IMG/VR virus record: IMGVR_UViG_2548876867_000014
Reading direction: 5' to 3' (one strand)
DNA: 5,339 nt
Origin: a virus
Lineage: Duplodnaviria > Heunggongvirae > Uroviricota > Caudoviricetes
The stretch's first letter is position 1, and every line of letters begins with the position of its first letter. A program made the translations under genes and the position numbers. Shown here one piece after another: positions 1 through 5,339 of the stretch. The notes below the pieces were generated by a model. The model ran no database searches. It worked only from the letters and a program-made list of their open reading frames with translations, and was not told the origin of the DNA.

Positions 1-270
<270 letters not shown>

Positions 271-293
271 TTACCGTTAAATCATTTTAAAAT

Positions 294-340
294 CAGTAAG
301 TTGTATCGAGTTTGTATGCTTTACTGTCATTAACTTACTG
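294..340. repeat. 9-bp perfect inverted repeat CAGTAAGTT (294-302) / AACTTACTG (332-340) with iterated TGTAT motifs in the yfhL-int intergenic region
   Basis: Read directly: the arms are exact reverse complements separated by 29 bp. TTGTAT/TGTATG recurs at 301-306, 312-318, 339-344 and 354-358. Function is unknown; possibilities are integrase arm/core sites or an operator. Confidence 0.4.
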
Positions 341-355
341 TATGTTGATCCAGTG
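336..355. promoter_or_regulatory. LexA (SOS) box-like sequence TACTGTATGTTGATCCAGTG
   Basis: CTGT-N8-cCAG, satisfying the CTG-N10-CAG core. The left half TACTGTAT is identical to the E. coli LexA consensus half-site (TACTGTATATATATACAGTA, from memory); the right half matches 6/8. It lies about 75 bp upstream of the yfhL ATG and about 120 bp upstream of the int ATG. Sequence-only call. Confidence 0.25.
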
Positions 356-475
356 TATTTAACCTTGATAAACTCAGTCCAGCAACACAAAACCGCAACA
401 CATTGCATTTTGTCCCGTAGAAAAGACTTGTATGTGTGAGCTTGTTTTCTGCGCCTACGCAGATAAGGATTGAGA

Positions 476-1873
476 ATGCCGCGCACTGTAACACATAATC
501 CGGATAGCCCCAATAATGACGATGTTTTAGCCGCTTCTGAAAAATGGGACGCCTGTAAACCCCCCTATACCAGCGCACACATGAAAATCTGTGTTGCTGC
601 CGCCAAAATCATCCTCGCTGCTTCCGGCGTGGCTCGCCGTTCCAAATACGAAAAAGAGAACTATCTCCGTATCGATTTCAGCAAAGCCGGTAAGGTTACA
701 TTTTACGCCGAGTTTCCAAAAAAGATGGGCCTCAAAGGTAAAAAGCTCGGCGAGTGGCCGGAGCTCGCTATCCAGCTGGCGCGCGAAAAAGCACTAGGTA
801 TGGCTGACGGTGGACTGCGGGCAGAGTCCGTACATGCAGCGCTGGAAATGTACCGGGATGACCTCAAAGCCAAAGTAGCCCGTCAGAAGCTGAGCCCGGA
901 CAGTTTCACAACCTACGGGGTGCGTATCGACCGGATTAAATCAACGTTCGGCGAGCGCGAGGTGTTCGGCGACGTAACATACAGTCGGCTGGTGGAAGTG
1001 CTGGACGAGTGGATCGCCACTCGCTCGAACAATAACGCCCTGGAGTTGTTTGCCGAGCTCCGTCGGTTCTGGAAGTTCTGCGCACCTACTCTTTGCAACG
1101 GCCGCAATGTTGCCGCCAGTCTGCCAGATGATTATGTTTCCTCCCGCGTACAGAAACCTACCCCCACACGGCTTTTTACCGATATTGAATCAATCGCCCG
1201 ACTCTGGCTCAATGTTGCTGCCTGCACCTCTGTACACCAGAAGAATGCTGTTCGCTTCATGATCATCACTGGTGTTCGTCCGATTAATGTCCATAACCTG
1301 CGCTGGGACTACGTTCACGAGGAGGCTGGTGAAATTGTTTATCCGGAAGGGGTTATCGGCATGCGAGGGGCTATGAAAACACAAAAGGCTTTCCGCCTGC
1401 CGATAACGCCTGAGATCCGGCGGATTATCGACGAGCAGAAAGCCTGGCGTGATTCAGTTCCTGAGTGCAACAGGGATTATGTATTTTTGCAGCCACGTGA
1501 TCCAATGCAGCCATTTTCAAAACGATCACTGGATAAGCTGGTGAAAACATACAGCCCGGACGGGGCTGTAAAAGGAATAAAACATGATGGGACTGTTAAA
1601 GGGAAAGACGGTGCATTTAATACGATGTGCCGTAAATTCCTTAAGAGCAATGTTATTGCCTTGATGAAGGAAAGAGGCTATTCCCGCTCAGACCGAAGGG
1701 AAATCAGCCTCCTTTGCCTTCACCACTCCAGCAAGTCAGATGACCCGATGGCAGAACATTACGACTTTTCTGATGAGATTTTACAGGAAGAGATTGCGTT
1801 GAAGCGCGAAGCTTTCGAGGCTCACGAGCGGAGCATACTTGCGCAGGTGGCATTGCTACGGCGGCGAGGTTAA
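476..1873 (+). CDS. int: Tyrosine recombinase / phage integrase, P4-like with N-terminal arm-binding domain
   Basis: Long ORF with ATG at 476 preceded by AAGGA (465-469) and a 6-nt spacer; the ORF track starts at an in-frame TTG at 470. The N-terminal stretch YLRIDFSKAGKVTFYAEF...LGEWPELAIQLAREKA resembles the DUF4102-type arm-binding domain of P4-family integrases. The C-terminal half has recombinase-like segments (ITGVRPINVHNLRW; HHSSKSDDPMAEHYDF with a candidate catalytic Tyr). TAA at 1871-1873. Confidence 0.82.
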   Translation: MPRTVTHNPDSPNNDDVLAASEKWDACKPPYTSAHMKICVAAAKIILAASGVARRSKYEKENYLRIDFSKAGKVTFYAEFPKKMGLKGKKLGEWPELAIQLAREKALGMADGGLRAESVHAALEMYRDDLKAKVARQKLSPDSFTTYGVRIDRIKSTFGEREVFGDVTYSRLVEVLDEWIATRSNNNALELFAELRRFWKFCAPTLCNGRNVAASLPDDYVSSRVQKPTPTRLFTDIESIARLWLNVAACTSVHQKNAVRFMIITGVRPINVHNLRWDYVHEEAGEIVYPEGVIGMRGAMKTQKAFRLPITPEIRRIIDEQKAWRDSVPECNRDYVFLQPRDPMQPFSKRSLDKLVKTYSPDGAVKGIKHDGTVKGKDGAFNTMCRKFLKSNVIALMKERGYSRSDRREISLLCLHHSSKSDDPMAEHYDFSDEILQEEIALKREAFEAHERSILAQVALLRRRG

Positions 1874-2070
1874 TACTGGCTGCGACATTTTTGAATAAAA
1901 GCGTCGACATTTCGGCGCTCATAACGAACTACTTTTGCACTGAAACGAATTGGTGCCAGGATAGCCCGATGACGATGCTTAATATTCAACTCACATAGCG
2001 TTTTCTGTGTAATACCTAACTTTTGGCATACTTCATCCGGGGTGAGTAAATCGTCGGGTTTCTCGCTCAT
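1870..2070 (-). CDS. AlpA/excisionase-family helix-turn-helix protein (putative Xis or small regulator)
   Basis: 66-codon ORF. LLTPDEVCQKLGITQKTL is the HTH typical of AlpA/Xis-type phage proteins. Its ATG (2070..2068) overlaps the helicase TGA (ATGA at 2067-2070), and its TAA (1872..1870) overlaps the integrase TAA (TTAA at 1870-1873). Confidence 0.72.
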   Translation of the reverse strand: MSEKPDDLLTPDEVCQKLGITQKTLCELNIKHRHRAILAPIRFSAKVVRYERRNVDAFIQKCRSQY

Positions 2071-3458
2071 GCTATACCTCTCTTTTTCATGGCATCGAGC
2101 AGGATGTCCTGCACTGTTCGTTTTGAGTTGCGCCGCTCCATCACCATTTCGTCCATAGTGTCGGCAGCAATAATGTGGTGAATAAATACCGGACGATTGT
2201 GTCCGGCCTGTATCTGTCTGGTTGGGCCGATACGTTCAATAATTTGCTGATATTGCTCCAGGTCCCACCAGTGTGAGAAAAATACCAGTATATTTCCGCC
2301 GTCCTGCATGTTCAGGCCGTGGCCCGCGCTGGCTGGGTGTGCAAAGAGAACAGGAATCTTTCCGGAATTCCAGTCGCGCAGTGTCTGTGGAGCCTGGTCG
2401 AGGTGACGACCGCGAGGGAATGCTTTAAGCAAGCGTTCAAGATCGTGTTTCCAGTGATAAGCAACCAGCACAGGTGCGCCAGCTGCTTCGGTCAGTATGC
2501 TGTCCAGCGCCTGTAGTTTGGTGTCATGCAGTTCTGACCAACTTCCGGTGTCATCTGTGTATACTGCGCCGCTGGCGATTTGCAGACACTTCAGTGTCTT
2601 TGCCGCGGCGTTCGGTGCTTCGATGCCTTCGCCATTCAGCTCGAGGAACATTTCCTTTTCCATTTCACGATACTGCTGACGGGCCTTCGGCGGCATATCC
2701 ACGCGGATTACGTTATGGATGGGGTCTTTGATATCGAACCAGTCGGCCGCATCCAGCGAGAGGGTCACATCGGCTAACGCTCGCTGTATTTCACCCTGTG
2801 AGTGAGCAAAAGGCTCCAGTTTGGTCCAGCTCTGCCCCGGAAACTGTATCGATTTGAACCAGCGTGAGGTAAACGCGCCGTAAGTGCGCCCGAGACGTTG
2901 CCCCTGGTCCACAAACCACGATTGTCCCCACAAATCTACCAGGCCGTTCGGTGCTGGCGTACCGGTGAGATTTATCCAGCGCCGGACATACTTGTGCGCC
3001 ACTTTGCCCAGCGCCGCCGCGCGCTTACCACCACCTCGCAGCCGGAAGGATTTTAGCCGGGTGCTTTCATCTGGAATGACAGTACCGAACGACCATCGTT
3101 CTCCCAATTCTTCAACCAGCCAGACAAGGTTATCGTAGTTGATTGTGAACACGCTCGCGTTGCTGTTCGCCAGCGCTGTAGAGCGCGCTTTGGCGTTACC
3201 GATGATCGGCTGTACCTCAATATTACGCAGATGCCCCCATTTAACAGCTTCATCAGGCCAAGTGCTTGCTGCAACGCGTAGCGGCGCGAGGACCAGCGCG
3301 GGGCGTGTTTCTGCTCCAGCCATGAAAAGATCTTCCAGCGTGGTGAGTGTCGCTACGGTTTTACCCATCCCCATCCCTGCCCAGATGTTGCCGCGCAGGG
3401 TCTCGATTTGATGATTGATGATGAGATCTTGGTAGGGACGTGGTTTAAAAGTTATCAT
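2067..3458 (-). CDS. SNF2/RAD54-family DNA helicase/ATPase (phage replication-recombination module)
   Basis: 463-codon ORF with ordered motifs: RPYQ (Q motif, residues 7-10), GMGKT (Walker A), DEST (motif II, DExx), LTGTPAPN (motif III), and a C-terminal lobe with QQIIERIGPTRQ (motif VI-like). Start ATG at 3458 is preceded by AGGGA about 8 nt upstream on the - strand. Confidence 0.85.
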   Translation of the reverse strand: MITFKPRPYQDLIINHQIETLRGNIWAGMGMGKTVATLTTLEDLFMAGAETRPALVLAPLRVAASTWPDEAVKWGHLRNIEVQPIIGNAKARSTALANSNASVFTINYDNLVWLVEELGERWSFGTVIPDESTRLKSFRLRGGGKRAAALGKVAHKYVRRWINLTGTPAPNGLVDLWGQSWFVDQGQRLGRTYGAFTSRWFKSIQFPGQSWTKLEPFAHSQGEIQRALADVTLSLDAADWFDIKDPIHNVIRVDMPPKARQQYREMEKEMFLELNGEGIEAPNAAAKTLKCLQIASGAVYTDDTGSWSELHDTKLQALDSILTEAAGAPVLVAYHWKHDLERLLKAFPRGRHLDQAPQTLRDWNSGKIPVLFAHPASAGHGLNMQDGGNILVFFSHWWDLEQYQQIIERIGPTRQIQAGHNRPVFIHHIIAADTMDEMVMERRNSKRTVQDILLDAMKKRGIA

Positions 3459-3481: not shown

Positions 3482-4207
3482 GTGCTCTTGAACATCATGA
3501 ATGTAAAAGATTTATCAATTACAACGGTTCTCTTGGCCGCCCTTTATTTTATGGCTTTTTCTTTTTACAAAGGGTACAGCTCATTTTATGGATTCCCTGT
3601 AAGTTTTATTTCTATTGGGATTGAGGAAATAGTTAAATTTTCTGTTATTGCATTAGGACTTTTGTGCACCTTAGTCGCTTTGCTGCATATTGATACTGAA
3701 GAGAAGAATATTCCATGGTGGGTGTATTTATTTTTCTTCATTTTGGCCTCTTTGCTTTCATACTGGACAATGTATTTATATGGCGGTAGCTCATACCTTT
3801 ATGAAAAATCCATAAGGGATGTGGCTACCCAAGCAATACTGTTGGGATTTATTAGCCCTATCAGTGTCAGGGCAGTATCTGTTTTTATTAGGAATGAATT
3901 TAGAATAAAAAACAAAACTCATGGGGTTATGCTTTTTATATCCATAGCAATGCTTCCTTCAGTCCTTGGGTGGGCATGGGCATACTTATCAGATGAGCCT
4001 CTTTTTTATTCTAAAAAATATGATGCTTATATTATCGAAAGCTATAACGGAAAATTTGTCTTGGGGAACTGTAAAAAAAATAGCTCTGAATTTATGAGTG
4101 TCGAAGGAATTGAGGGGAAATTAATTCCTGTAAGCATAAAAGAAACACAACAACTAAAAGTATGTTTTTTAAAAGCTTCTAAGCTCAAGAAAAATCGCTC
4201 AGAATGA
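3482..4207 (+). CDS. Hypothetical multi-pass membrane protein, AT-rich moron; no recognisable catalytic motif
   Basis: ORF on the strand opposite to all flanking phage genes. Start is GTG 3482 or more likely ATG 3497 (MNVKDL...). Hand counts of sample 60-nt stretches give about one-third G+C (3541-3600), against about 65% in a helicase sample (3001-3060). About five hydrophobic segments: LSITTVLLAALYFMAFSFY, FSVIALGLLCTLVALLHI, IPWWVYLFFFILASLLSYWTMYLY, AILLGFISPISVRAVSVFI, GVMLFISIAMLPSVLGWAWAYL. These are followed by a roughly 70-aa hydrophilic, Lys-rich C-terminal region. Stop TGA at 4205-4207, 5 bp from the convergent VRR-NUC stop. Confidence 0.6.
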   Translation: MLLNIMNVKDLSITTVLLAALYFMAFSFYKGYSSFYGFPVSFISIGIEEIVKFSVIALGLLCTLVALLHIDTEEKNIPWWVYLFFFILASLLSYWTMYLYGGSSYLYEKSIRDVATQAILLGFISPISVRAVSVFIRNEFRIKNKTHGVMLFISIAMLPSVLGWAWAYLSDEPLFYSKKYDAYIIESYNGKFVLGNCKKNSSEFMSVEGIEGKLIPVSIKETQQLKVCFLKASKLKKNRSE

Positions 4208-4212
4208 TTGTC

Positions 4213-4482
4213 TCACAATATCCCCTCTAAATTTTTGCTATCCAGCACCACCACGGTAAAGCCCAGTTTTCGCAGACGTTCATGTTCGCGCAACTGGTCA
4301 GGCCGTGGTGGCTTGCCGGGAGATTTACATTCAACGAAAACGATACGACCGCCTGGTAGCAGGACAATGCGATCCGGTACCGAGCGGTGACCGGGAGATA
4401 CAAACTTAAAGGCCACTCCGCCAGCTTTTTTCACTTCAGCGACGAGGTGCTTTTCGATAAGGCTTTCACGTTCATAGGCCAT
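4213..4482 (-). CDS. VRR-NUC domain nuclease (PD-(D/E)xK superfamily)
   Basis: Signature SVPDRIVLL...IVFVECK (PD...E-x-K) followed by QLREHERLRKLGFTVVV, typical of VRR-NUC proteins. Start taken as ATG 4482 (MAYERE...), which overlaps the end of the upstream gene by 11 nt; an alternative in-frame ATG lies at 4509. Stop TGA at 4215..4213. Confidence 0.8.
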   Translation of the reverse strand: MAYERESLIEKHLVAEVKKAGGVAFKFVSPGHRSVPDRIVLLPGGRIVFVECKSPGKPPRPDQLREHERLRKLGFTVVVLDSKNLEGIL

Positions 4483-4771
4483 CTGAATCCCACTCTTCAA
4501 AAAGCACATTCAATTCCAGTTTCTCTGCCAACGCGTTTTCTGCACGTGCGCCAGCAGAGTACTCCCACTCTTTGAGCATATAAATCGTATCGGCACAGCG
4601 AAGCATTGCGAGGCAGATGTCCATGTACTGAGCCTGTGTCAAACCATTGGGTAAAGTTGCGGGGTTAAGCACAACATATCCCTTGTCCGTTAGCCTTTTT
4701 GCTGCGGAATGAAAGGCCGGGCGGTTAAATTGCTCGTAACCGCTCATCGGCCCGGCAACGTAAACGATCAT
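4472..4771 (-). CDS. DUF4406-like protein (nucleoside 2-deoxyribosyltransferase-like fold)
   Basis: 99-codon ORF. The N-terminus MIVYVAGPMSGYEQFNRPAF and overall size resemble DUF4406 proteins that I recall from phage genomes (memory-based, not searched). Its ATG overlaps the stop of the upstream ORF (ATGA at 4768-4771). Confidence 0.65.
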   Translation of the reverse strand: MIVYVAGPMSGYEQFNRPAFHSAAKRLTDKGYVVLNPATLPNGLTQAQYMDICLAMLRCADTIYMLKEWEYSAGARAENALAEKLELNVLFEEWDSDGL

Positions 4772-4983
4772 TCTTCGACCGCCTTACGCTTTTCACGCAT
4801 GTTCTGCATCAGGCAAAAATCAGATCTGCGTTCACTCCATTCCTGATTCAGTTCGTGATGTGATTCGCGGTTGGCTTTTGCCCAGACCTCCGCTGCCCGG
4901 TCATATTCGCCGGATTGTTCAAGTCGCAAAGCTTCCCTTGCAGCCCTGTAATAAAGTGGATTGTCCCGGTATTTAAATGACAT
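4768..4983 (-). CDS. Small hypothetical protein, tentatively ANR-family (AraC-negative-regulator, Aar-like)
   Basis: 71-codon ORF. The pattern A..EALRLEQSGEY..AAEVWAKA...N.EW..RR.DFC resembles small ANR-family proteins as I recall them. AAGGA lies 9 nt upstream of the ATG on the - strand. It is translationally coupled to the downstream gene. Family assignment is tentative. Confidence 0.5.
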   Translation of the reverse strand: MSFKYRDNPLYYRAAREALRLEQSGEYDRAAEVWAKANRESHHELNQEWSERRSDFCLMQNMREKRKAVEE

Positions 4984-4988
4984 AGGAG

Positions 4989-5339
4989 TTAATCCTTACG
5001 GTAGTGGTACGCCTCAAAACCGCCAGCGTTCAGTGGGATATCGGGCGCCCATTCGGGGTTAGTGGAGAGAAGTGCGGAAAGCGCTTTATCGTTGAAATCT
5101 TCTGTGTCAGGTGCTTCGGTGATCACCTCGTCGTGTACCGTCAGCACAATGCTGTAACCGGCATCTTCGATAAGCGGCATGTTTCCGGCCAGAATGTCGC
5201 GGGCGGCCGCCTGGGTGATGTTCTCCACCAGCTTTCCGCCGTAGGTTTTGAGTCGTTGCCATTTACGCGAATAAGAGTTAACCCCTAGACTGGCCCCCTG
5301 AATCTCCAGACAACCAGTATCACTTAAATAAGTGATAGT
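4989..5339 (-). CDS. Family-A DNA polymerase, C-terminal fragment (N-terminus lies beyond the window edge)
   Basis: The - strand frame is open from 5339 with no stop until TAA at 4991..4989, so the GTG at 5228 in the ORF track is probably internal. The C-terminus [11 protein letters not shown]...[15 protein letters not shown]...[17 protein letters not shown] aligns by eye with E. coli Pol I (recalled from memory: QGTAADIIK...MIMQVHDELVFE...DVPLLVEVGSGENWDQAH), including the motif C HDE. Confidence 0.62.

Follow-up and report, generated by a model that had tools for sequence, protein, structure and literature searches.

A tail-to-tail integrase and excisionase-like gene pair with shared stop codons at the left end of a yfhL prophage

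The window analysed here, 5,339 nucleotides of tailed-phage DNA (IMG/VR record IMGVR_UViG_2548876867_000014), represents the left end of a prophage of ~41 kb that has integrated into E. coli yfhL, within the 5' part of its coding sequence. It matches EHEC O26 genomes at 99.2%, and the annotated context there is a complete phage. A hybrid yfhL gene encoding a 4Fe-4S ferredoxin occupies 1..261 on the minus strand (Pfam Fer4 families; RefSeq annotation), its codons 1-10 (232-261) being supplied by the phage; aligned with the window, the empty site of BL21 is identical up to position 231 and diverges beyond. This alignment together with an 18-bp direct repeat defines both attachment sites. The attL core TTCACACATATCACAATT, at 214..231, falls in the CxxCxxC-coding part of yfhL and is repeated exactly at attR (L122, 16303-16320), about 40.8 kb away and adjoining yfhH. 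The same yfhL site is also used by Stx2b prophages (PMC12029490). Three records, ON470579, ON470582 and ON470588, match the window only from the helicase gene onward, as if the integrase and excisionase-like genes had been swapped as a cassette; they are clipped prophage predictions that still contain host tadA, pgpC and yfhH, and the swap reading was dropped.

The integrase gene int encodes a tyrosine recombinase of 465 amino acids on the plus strand (476..1873). Its open reading frame spans 470/476..1873, and the start at 476 is backed by an N-terminus conserved in 22 homologues and is preceded by the Shine-Dalgarno sequence AAGGA at 465-469. The protein matches PF00589 with 30.4 bits (cut-off 27.1) and the phrog_1 integrase family with an E value of 2.2e-26, and yields no NCBIfam match. 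Across 22 sequences there is no variation at R268, K301, R386 and H417, and Y429 is kept in at least 90%; an invariant Thr383 stands in place of the His of the HxxR motif, which leaves five of the six canonical catalytic residues. Homologues, 92 in number, are spread across the Gammaproteobacteria. The gene points away from attL, and no gene upstream of it runs in the same direction, in line with the earlier note's statement that int is transcribed alone toward its convergent neighbour.

That neighbour, at 1870..2070 on the minus strand, encodes a protein of 66 amino acids (pI 9.45) that we predict, from fold, PHROG family and co-divergence, to be the partner excisionase or recombination directionality factor (RDF) of Int; we refer to the gene as xis. 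The earlier note had called it AlpA/Xis-like, and the two halves of that name fared differently. PF05930 (Phage_AlpA) gives no match at E <= 0.01, whereas the HTH_17/MerR-like fold is of the excisionase type. The score against HTH_17 (PF12728), 24.9 bits, is just under the cut-off of 27, and several homologues carry the precomputed PF12728 assignment. The PHROG matches are phrog_4745 and, weakly, phrog_66, 'excisionase and transcriptional regulator' (E 9e-5); NCBIfam gives none for this protein, and PADLOC gives none for it, for the low-GC ORF or for the PerC-like ORF. An AlphaFold model (pLDDT 80) predicts a small MerR-like winged-helix fold that matches BldC, Pukovnik Xis (4j2n), RdfS (8dgl) and the GIsul2 excisionase (8c3t), with a target TM score of 0.76 and an rmsd of 1.4 Å for 4j2n, which a sequence profile also matches at E 0.011. 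The identities of Xis and Int to their respective homologues correlate closely (rho 0.95, n=24), and in at least 22 species-level loci with different phage backbones the homologue beside int always lies on the opposite strand, downstream, adjacent or near.

The 66-residue protein could instead be a transcriptional regulator, an AlpA-like activator or a relative of BldC, or an inhibitor acting on some other function of phage or host, its pairing with int being positional only. BldC, a developmental regulator, is indeed among the best structural matches, the best PHROG family carries no label beyond 'DNA binding protein', the NCBI name is that of a helix-turn-helix regulator, and a small int-side gene of S. 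aureus phage 80alpha that had been annotated as xis proved to be not an excisionase but Ith (PMC11087260). A few homologues also occur with no int nearby (L123, L125-127), but these resemble decayed remnants, one truncated at its N-terminus and another with a scrambled middle segment. As the tight co-divergence with Int, the convergent placement kept in at least 22 loci of different phage backbones and the fold match to four solved structures of excisionase/RDF type all speak against a purely positional pairing, we consider a function other than excision very unlikely.

Upstream of xis, and on the same strand, lies a gene for a SNF2-family helicase (2067..3458; PF00176; phrog_62, E 9e-157), the penultimate gene of a leftward replication string. 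Direct reading of the sequence shows that the start codon of xis and the stop codon of the helicase gene share ATGA (2067..2070, minus strand), and GAGAGG stands 6 nt upstream of the xis ATG, an arrangement which suggests that translation of xis is coupled to that of the helicase. In the RefSeq context genes of the same strand continue back to the repressor region. The earlier note had placed xis as the last cistron of a leftward operon; the co-orientation and the ATGA overlap agree with this, but a single long leftward transcript is not certain, as a low-GC ORF on the plus strand (3482-4207) interrupts the string upstream.

The stretch between attL and int carries several conserved elements. 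In the int-proximal att arm a candidate LexA (SOS)-box-like palindrome, ACTGTATGTTGATCCAGT, lies at 337..354; its pattern, ACTGT-N9-CAGT, occurs only once in the window with 0.01 occurrences expected. Set against the LexA consensus (taken from PMC3108266), the box at 338-353 reads CTGT-N8-CCAG. Its position relative to the int ATG is kept in relatives, six of which have the perfect CTGT-N8-ACAG, and in about half of the lineages the first half-site is TTGT or GTGT, so that the critical C of CTG is lost. Further toward int, tandem GCAACACA repeats (382..404 on the plus strand; copies at 382-391 and 395-404) are nearly invariant among 20 aligned loci and recur as three further copies in the other arm, near attR; they are candidate arm-type sites of Int. 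They are followed, within 418..441 on the plus strand, by two conserved alignment blocks, a -10-like TAGAAA (418-423) and ATGTGTGAGC (432-441), the latter being an inverted copy of a core half-site: TATGTGTGA, when reverse-complemented, reads as the TCACACATA of the core. Repeats, hexamer and core-like inverted site are all conserved and stand 35-95 nt upstream of the int ATG, and we infer a promoter role for the elements at 418..441. A generic scan found no strong sigma-70 site between 262 and 470, and a sigma-70-like site at 470-499 was rejected as the int promoter, as it overlies the start codon and the Int N-terminus is conserved from 476. Together, the palindrome, the tandem repeats and the core-like site suggest that int is controlled independently.

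Where int and xis meet, positions 1870-1873 read T-T-A-A directly in the sequence, and this shared TTAA (1870..1873) contains the int stop codon TAA at 1871-1873 and the xis stop codon TAA as the complement of 1870-1872, just as the earlier note had described. The same 4-nt overlap is annotated by RefSeq in L001, a genome 99.2% identical, as the CDS pair 20476..21873 (+) and 21870..22070 (-). The further claim that there is no room for a terminator is literally so, as there is no intergenic DNA at all, and when the 70 nt around the junction were scanned on both strands, no hairpin resembling an intrinsic terminator turned up in the window or in the other overlapped loci. A 72-aa ORF spanning the junction on the minus strand (1704..1922) is present only in near-identical E. 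coli copies and was taken as spurious. The 3' end of xis is a conserved Tyr-stop, TAT/TAC-TAA, whose complement, TTA-(A/G)TA, provides a TAA or TAG stop in the reading frame of int. As the stop codon of int is thus the complement of the conserved Tyr-stop of xis, the overlap persists for as long as the frames are unchanged. In the alignments, the C-terminus of Xis is conserved and the last 3-4 residues of Int are variable.

Comparison of 26 species-level loci showed how far this geometry is kept. A 4-nt overlap (TTAA or TTAG) is present in 12 loci, down to 69% Int identity and including Serratia phage OS31; overlaps of 7 or 29 nt are found in two loci, abutting genes in two, spacers of 13-100 nt in five and insertions of 0.5-1.9 kb in the remaining five. 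Among the enterobacterial relatives overlap is the most frequent arrangement, and the 4-nt form stays modal across roughly 30% nucleotide divergence, which could reflect selection for the overlap. The spread of spacings (-29, -7, -4, 0, 13-100 and >500 nt) is better matched by stop codons drifting about an arrangement without spacer than by a fixed device. Convergent gene overlaps are in any case common, accounting for 3,035 of 42,055 overlaps in one survey (PMC2478687). All five of the short spacers, among them one of 27 nt in Oceanimonas (L039, 4925-4951), carry a strong intrinsic terminator for the leftward, xis-side transcript, and in two outgroups (L035 and L036) the terminator acts both ways. 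These terminator-bearing spacers and the 0.5-1.9 kb insertions indicate that in nature the module works without the overlap and is sometimes insulated.

The comparison bears most directly on the suggestion of the earlier note that leftward transcription, while making Xis, would run antisense into int and so bias recombination toward excision. In the overlapped lineages an induced leftward transcript would, on this reading, provide Xis and lower Int through collision or through degradation of an RNA duplex. It is compatible with a junction that has neither intergenic DNA nor a terminator-like hairpin within 70 nt, in the window as in the other overlapped loci, and with overlap being the commonest state among the enterobacterial relatives. 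There is also precedent, as antisense control of a gene near int within a noncontiguous operon has been demonstrated in 80alpha (PMC11087260), and efficient excision of KplE1 is reported to need a critical rather than a maximal level of integrase (PMC2951348). However, the terminator in all five spacer-bearing relatives blocks exactly such read-through and five other loci have 0.5-1.9 kb between the genes, so that antisense read-through into int cannot count as a conserved feature of this module and the comparison does not favour the suggestion. Lowering Int is moreover not obviously pro-excision, since excision requires Int as well as Xis, and the overlap itself has a trivial explanation in the sequence. 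Rho typically acts on untranslated RNA that has C>G stretches; such stretches occur in the minus-strand RNA just beyond the xis stop and are compatible with Rho loading, so Rho-dependent termination plausibly limits leftward read-through. Antisense interference is possible in the overlapped enterobacterial lineages, where no intrinsic terminator was found within 70 nt, and we regard the excision bias built on it as unlikely. If true, it would offer a new and simple means of adjusting the ratio of Int to Xis.

The interference might also run in the reverse direction, low constitutive transcription of int in a lysogen passing antisense through xis and the helicase gene, damping leaky early-left expression and stabilising the prophage. 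No terminator for the int transcript was found near the junction in the window, only weak terminator-like candidates inside the helicase gene (2099-2112), and 80alpha again offers a precedent in mutual exclusion by antisense promoters (PMC11087260). This argument is purely geometric, Rho would act here too and the terminators of L035 and L036 are bidirectional, which together make the reverse effect improbable in our view. One can also envisage both directions at once. In the enterobacterial branch int and early-left transcription would be obligately convergent, as the insulating terminator found in every spacer-bearing relative is absent, and the junction would act as a two-way, spacer-free counterpart of the lambda sib element in setting the Int:Xis ratio; upon induction the leftward RNA would pair as antisense with the 3'-terminal part of the int mRNA, or its synthesis would collide with that of int, and in the lysogen leaky expression of xis would be kept low by transcription of int. 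We hold this combined scheme to be quite doubtful. Two minus-strand hairpins inside int, a terminator-like one at 1570..1550 and a strong one at 1714..1671 (dG -20.6), may be embedded terminators or processing sites for the leftward transcript but do not enter our explanation. Some relatives have comparable hairpins in the corresponding position, yet over 27 sequences only 68.6% of cells pair, compared to 66% in shuffles, the outer helix lacks conservation and the relatives have no U-tract. An Rfam scan of the whole window gave no match at E <= 1.

The anatomy, the protein families, the att site and the comparative pattern are established here; what follows on promoters, on regulation, on RDF activity and on Rho is a model. 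Based on these data we propose, with a probability of roughly 0.6, that the locus is a tail-to-tail integrase/RDF recombination module whose two genes are under separate transcriptional control, the shared TTAA resulting from packing. int would be transcribed by itself from the att arm adjoining attL, from its own promoter flanked by the conserved Int-type repeats, the core-like site and the LexA-box-like palindrome, and it is probably autoregulated and/or SOS-responsive, by analogy with KplE1. The RDF gene, as the last of the leftward early/replication string and translationally coupled to the SNF2 helicase gene, would be switched on only once inactivation of the CI-like, LexA-family repressor lets early leftward transcription begin. 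Directionality would then most likely follow from the separate control of int and xis, and antisense effects of convergent transcription would be secondary at most, with Rho probably terminating the untranslated read-through RNA and so limiting them. The shared TTAA looks like a by-product of packing int and xis without a spacer, ordinary in a known kind of recombination module. As it stands, the compact layout of a standard integrase/excisionase pair is of little significance in itself. What is described is a widespread integrase-RDF cassette of Gammaproteobacteria whose target is the part of the yfhL ferredoxin gene that encodes the conserved Cys motif, and the junctions of this cassette, with spacer and terminator, abutting or overlapping, offer a natural comparison set for relating convergent read-through to directionality.

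In phage lambda, xis and int overlap, point the same way and are transcribed together from pL, and retroregulation by sib controls int from its 3' end through an RNase III hairpin beyond att. The present module shares with lambda a tyrosine integrase, a small winged-helix protein as predicted RDF and putative arm-type and core-type sites, and in lambda events at the int 3' end set the Int:Xis ratio; here, however, the genes lie on opposite strands and do not form a lambda-type xis-int operon. APSE-1, a phage with a related helicase, has the lambda-like co-oriented layout. A convergent pair resembling ours is known from the SXT/R391 integrative and conjugative elements, in which xis and int are two convergent genes rather than an operon (Poulin-Laprade et al. 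2015, PMC4344509). The element there is conjugative and under SetCD, not a phage, and the available text reports no stop-codon overlap (PMC4344509); in our searches the protein families are unrelated to the present ones at the sequence level. The noncontiguous ith/tha operon of 80alpha likewise includes, close to int, a small gene that runs opposite to its neighbours, and antisense transcription contributes there to the lysogenic/lytic switch with measured effects; ith lies inside the operon, has its own promoter and encodes an immunity inhibitor, not an RDF (PMC11087260).

A genuine homologue is the cassette of Serratia phage vB_SspS_OS31 (MT843276), with Int 76% and Xis 69% identical and the same 4-nt TTAA overlap (263..1660 + / 1657..1872 -), although its backbone is that of a lambdoid siphovirus and the gene before xis encodes an exoribonuclease, not a helicase. 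Its authors found in 2020 no viral homologues of the pair and did not comment on the overlap (PMC7556043). OS31 is inducible with mitomycin C (PMC7556043), so a live phage excises with this module. In regulatory layout the module resembles KplE1 (CPS-53)/HK620, the IntS/TorI system (Panis et al. 2010, PMC2951348), where, as here, int adjoins attL and is oriented into the prophage. The two systems differ in their integrase and RDF families and in their target, KplE1 integrating in the tRNA gene argW and the present element in the yfhL coding sequence; torI, moreover, is found at the opposite prophage end, whereas xis here is tail-to-tail with int. In neither is int co-transcribed with the RDF gene (core at 214-231, int on the plus and xis on the minus strand here), and since the RDF of KplE1 belongs to a different transcription unit, its int and RDF genes have no common induced promoter. 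The int promoter of KplE1 overlaps attL and autoregulation of intS has been demonstrated (PMC2951348), which for the present int we infer. KplE1 int thus has its own promoter region in the att arm, and here the repeats and the core-like site occupy the corresponding place.

The integrase gene (int) and the 66-aa excisionase-like gene (xis) share the tetranucleotide TTAA at 1870-1873, as read directly from the sequence: the + strand int ORF ends at 1873 with the stop TAA at 1871-1873, and the xis ORF (2070..1870, - strand) ends with a TAA that is the complement of 1870-1872. The RefSeq annotation of E. coli O26:H11 97-3250, which is 99.2% identical to the window, places the two CDS at 20476..21873 (+) and 21870..22070 (-) with the same 4-nt overlap, so that the statement of the earlier note that the two genes converge with overlapping stops was correct as written. 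Of 42,055 gene overlaps in 338 genomes, 3,035 are convergent, so that this kind of overlap is in the minority but ordinary (PMC2478687). When spacing was tallied over 26 species-level loci, 12 had a 4-nt overlap (TTAA or TTAG), one overlapped by 7 nt and one by 29 nt, two abutted (0 nt), five had a spacer of 13-100 nt and five carried 0.5-1.9 kb between int and xis. The C-terminus of Xis (..KCRSQY) is conserved and the final 3-4 residues of Int are variable. On the + strand the complement of the xis Tyr-stop (TAT/TAC-TAA) reads TTA(A/G)TA, which in the frame of int includes a TAA or a TAG, and therefore the alternation of the int stop between TAA and TAG is a synonymous TAT/TAC change in xis. 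As the int stop is the complement of a conserved Tyr-stop, persistence of the overlap would be explained without any function of the overlap itself, and the variants at -29, -7 and 0 look like ordinary stop-codon drift.

It had been proposed that leftward early transcription makes Xis and at the same time runs antisense into int, biasing the system toward excision. Read-through is physically possible in the overlapped lineages, and a search extending 70 nt from the junction detected no hairpin/T-run terminator, either in the window or in the further loci examined whose genes overlap or abut. All five short-spacer loci carry inside the spacer, on the strand of the xis transcript, a strong GC-rich hairpin with a T-run after it (Salinivibrio L024, 2704-2728; Shewanella L035, 5631-5650; Pseudoalteromonas L036, 5577-5600; Oceanimonas L039, 4928-4947, and L040, about 3795-3824), and the flanks of the Shewanella and Pseudoalteromonas hairpins fit action in both directions. 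These five relatives are all non-enterobacterial; in Salinivibrio the int stop codon lies within the terminator loop and the T-run arises from the terminal Lys codons of int, to which it is complementary. Since some relatives insulate int by a terminator and others keep the genes up to 1.9 kb apart, the int-xis module appears not to depend on read-through, and the comparison leaves antisense read-through unsupported as a mechanism biasing toward excision. In addition, excision requires Int too, so that lowering Int is not self-evidently pro-excision. Even though in the E. coli prophage KplE1 the optimum is reported to be a low, critical level of Int (PMC2951348) and S. aureus phage 80alpha does control a gene close to int by antisense transcription (PMC11087260), we consider it unlikely that read-through in the overlapped lineages has an effect on recombination, in either direction.

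The - strand RNA beyond the xis stop is untranslated and has stretches in which C exceeds G (C/G of 1.6-1.7 at 1869-1790 and of 2.0-2.8 at 1674-1560). Untranslated RNA of this kind is the type of substrate on which Rho acts, and we infer that the leftward read-through RNA is likely to be one. Two hairpins lie inside int on the - strand: one, at 1570..1550, resembles a terminator, and the other, at 1714..1671, is stable (dG -20.6 kcal/mol) and lies some 160-200 nt beyond the end of xis. Some relatives have the second hairpin at matching codons, with a few compensatory changes; as a family-wide structure it is unsupported, 68.6% of cells pairing vs 66% in shuffles.

Members of the integrase family occur in Enterobacterales, Vibrionales, Aeromonadales and Alteromonadales. 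In 36 genome loci and 80 viral contigs we located the end of int and the Xis homologue closest to it. Int and xis move as one unit, because the Xis homologue, wherever found, is encoded on the other strand, downstream of int, the identities of Int and Xis to their counterparts in the window correlate (Spearman 0.95, n=24), and the gene preceding xis varies between phages, being a helicase, a 190-244-aa ORF, a 107-aa ORF or, in Serratia phage vB_SspS_OS31 (OS31), an exoribonuclease. OS31 has the same 4-nt TTAA overlap (263..1660 / 1657..1872), and as it was obtained through mitomycin induction (PMC7556043), the module works in a live phage.

The integrase scores 30.4 bits against PF00589, above the Pfam threshold of 27.1. 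Residues R268, K301, R386, H417 and Y429 are kept across 22 homologues (33-79% identity), in which the His of HxxR is replaced by an invariant Thr. Conservation of the N-terminus, together with an AAGGA at 465-469, speaks for a start at 476. With a pI of 9.45 the 66-aa protein is basic; it matches HTH_17 at 24.9 bits, just below the Pfam cut-off of 27. Its model (mean pLDDT 80) superposes on BldC, the RdfS (8dgl) and GIsul2 (8c3t) excisionases and mycobacteriophage Pukovnik Xis (4j2n, rmsd 1.4 A), and a sequence profile picks up 4j2n and BldC as well, with E about 0.01. A Pfam search returned no match to AlpA (PF05930). Of the label "AlpA/Xis-like" the second half thus seems reasonable and the first is unsupported. 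It should be noted that, as the 80alpha study shows, a small gene annotated "xis" beside int need not encode an excisionase (PMC11087260). The xis ATG overlaps the helicase stop (ATGA, 2067-2070) with GAGAGG 6 nt upstream, suggesting that xis may be translationally coupled to the helicase gene.

The element is a ~41-kb prophage, as the window matches the empty BL21 site up to position 231 and differs beyond, and the 18-bp core TTCACACATATCACAATT (214-231) is exactly repeated ~40.8 kb away, adjoining yfhH. The host gene yfhL (ferredoxin; 1-261, -; Pfam and RefSeq annotation) is an already listed prophage integration site (PMC3603311), used by Stx2b prophages as well (PMC12029490). The core falls in the yfhL segment coding for the CxxCxxC cluster motif, and codons 1-10 are replaced by a phage-supplied version (232-261; compared with MALLITKKCIN). 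The ferredoxin ORF is restored and yet parted from its native promoter, and therefore a leftward promoter must lie within phage DNA.

According to Pfam and PHROG, the tyrosine integrase (465 aa; 476-1873, +) is followed by the 66-aa helix-turn-helix protein (1870-2070, -) and an SNF2 helicase (2067-3458, -); further on, Pfam identifies VRR-NUC, DUF4406 and PerC-like genes and the 3' part of a DNA polymerase gene (4213-5228, -). In 97-3250 genes on one strand form a string that extends from the pair of LexA-family (S24) repressor and cro-like gene to the 66-aa gene, and lysis, head and tail genes come after the immunity region. The convergent layout described earlier holds, but the leftward string is not unbroken, as upstream of xis a 241-aa ORF (3482-4207, +) lies on the strand opposite to its neighbours in an island of 33-35% GC. 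This ORF has no match in Pfam, PHROG or PADLOC, is annotated by RefSeq in 97-3250 in a shorter, 195-aa version, and looks like a moron that has entered the string of leftward replication genes. The last positions of the window (5286-5339) belong to the terminus of an IS3-family insertion sequence, a multicopy element; as this element interrupts the polymerase gene, this prophage copy is probably replication-defective. Three GenBank "complete phage genome" records (vB_EcoM-606R2, -689R2 and -611R5; ON470579.1 among them) carry host tadA, pgpC and yfhH at one end and stop at the helicase gene, without xis and int, at the other; they appear to be clipped prophage regions.

Upstream of int, several blocks are conserved in an alignment of 20 loci, each at a constant distance from the ATG: a palindrome ACTGTATGTTGATCCAGT (337-354), TTGATA (365-370), nearly invariant tandem GCAACACA repeats (382-391 and 395-404), a -10-like TAGAAA (418-423) and ATGTGTGAGC (432-441), which repeats the core half-site in inverted orientation, ATGTGTGA being the inverse of TCACACAT. 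Three more copies of GCAACACA lie in the other arm (about 16190-16260 of L122, a related record carrying the attR end). A generic promoter scan found nothing strong upstream of int. We hypothesize that these blocks are candidate arm-type and core-type Int sites laid over the int promoter. The palindrome, the only ACTGT-N9-CAGT in the window (0.01 expected), precedes the int start by about 125-140 nt, a position kept across the integrase family, and differs by one base from the LexA box CTGTatatatatACAG (PMC3108266). Six relatives have a perfect box (CTGT-N8-ACAG), but in about half of the lineages the first half-site reads TTGT or GTGT. A second LexA-box-like palindrome is present in the other att arm near attR (L122, 16110-16125). 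The palindromes suggest a possible SOS input to int expression or recombination.

The cassette is already annotated as integrase and excisionase in OS31, and in SXT/R391 elements, too, xis and int are known to converge (PMC4344509); what is new here is the stop-codon overlap, a detail of small consequence. Independent int promoters at attL are likewise a paradigm described for KplE1, where int and the recombination directionality factor (RDF) have no induced promoter in common (PMC2951348). The candidate Int sites over the putative int promoter resemble the arrangement at KplE1 intS, where the promoter was shown experimentally to overlap attL and to be repressed by the integrase IntS and the RDF TorI (PMC2951348).
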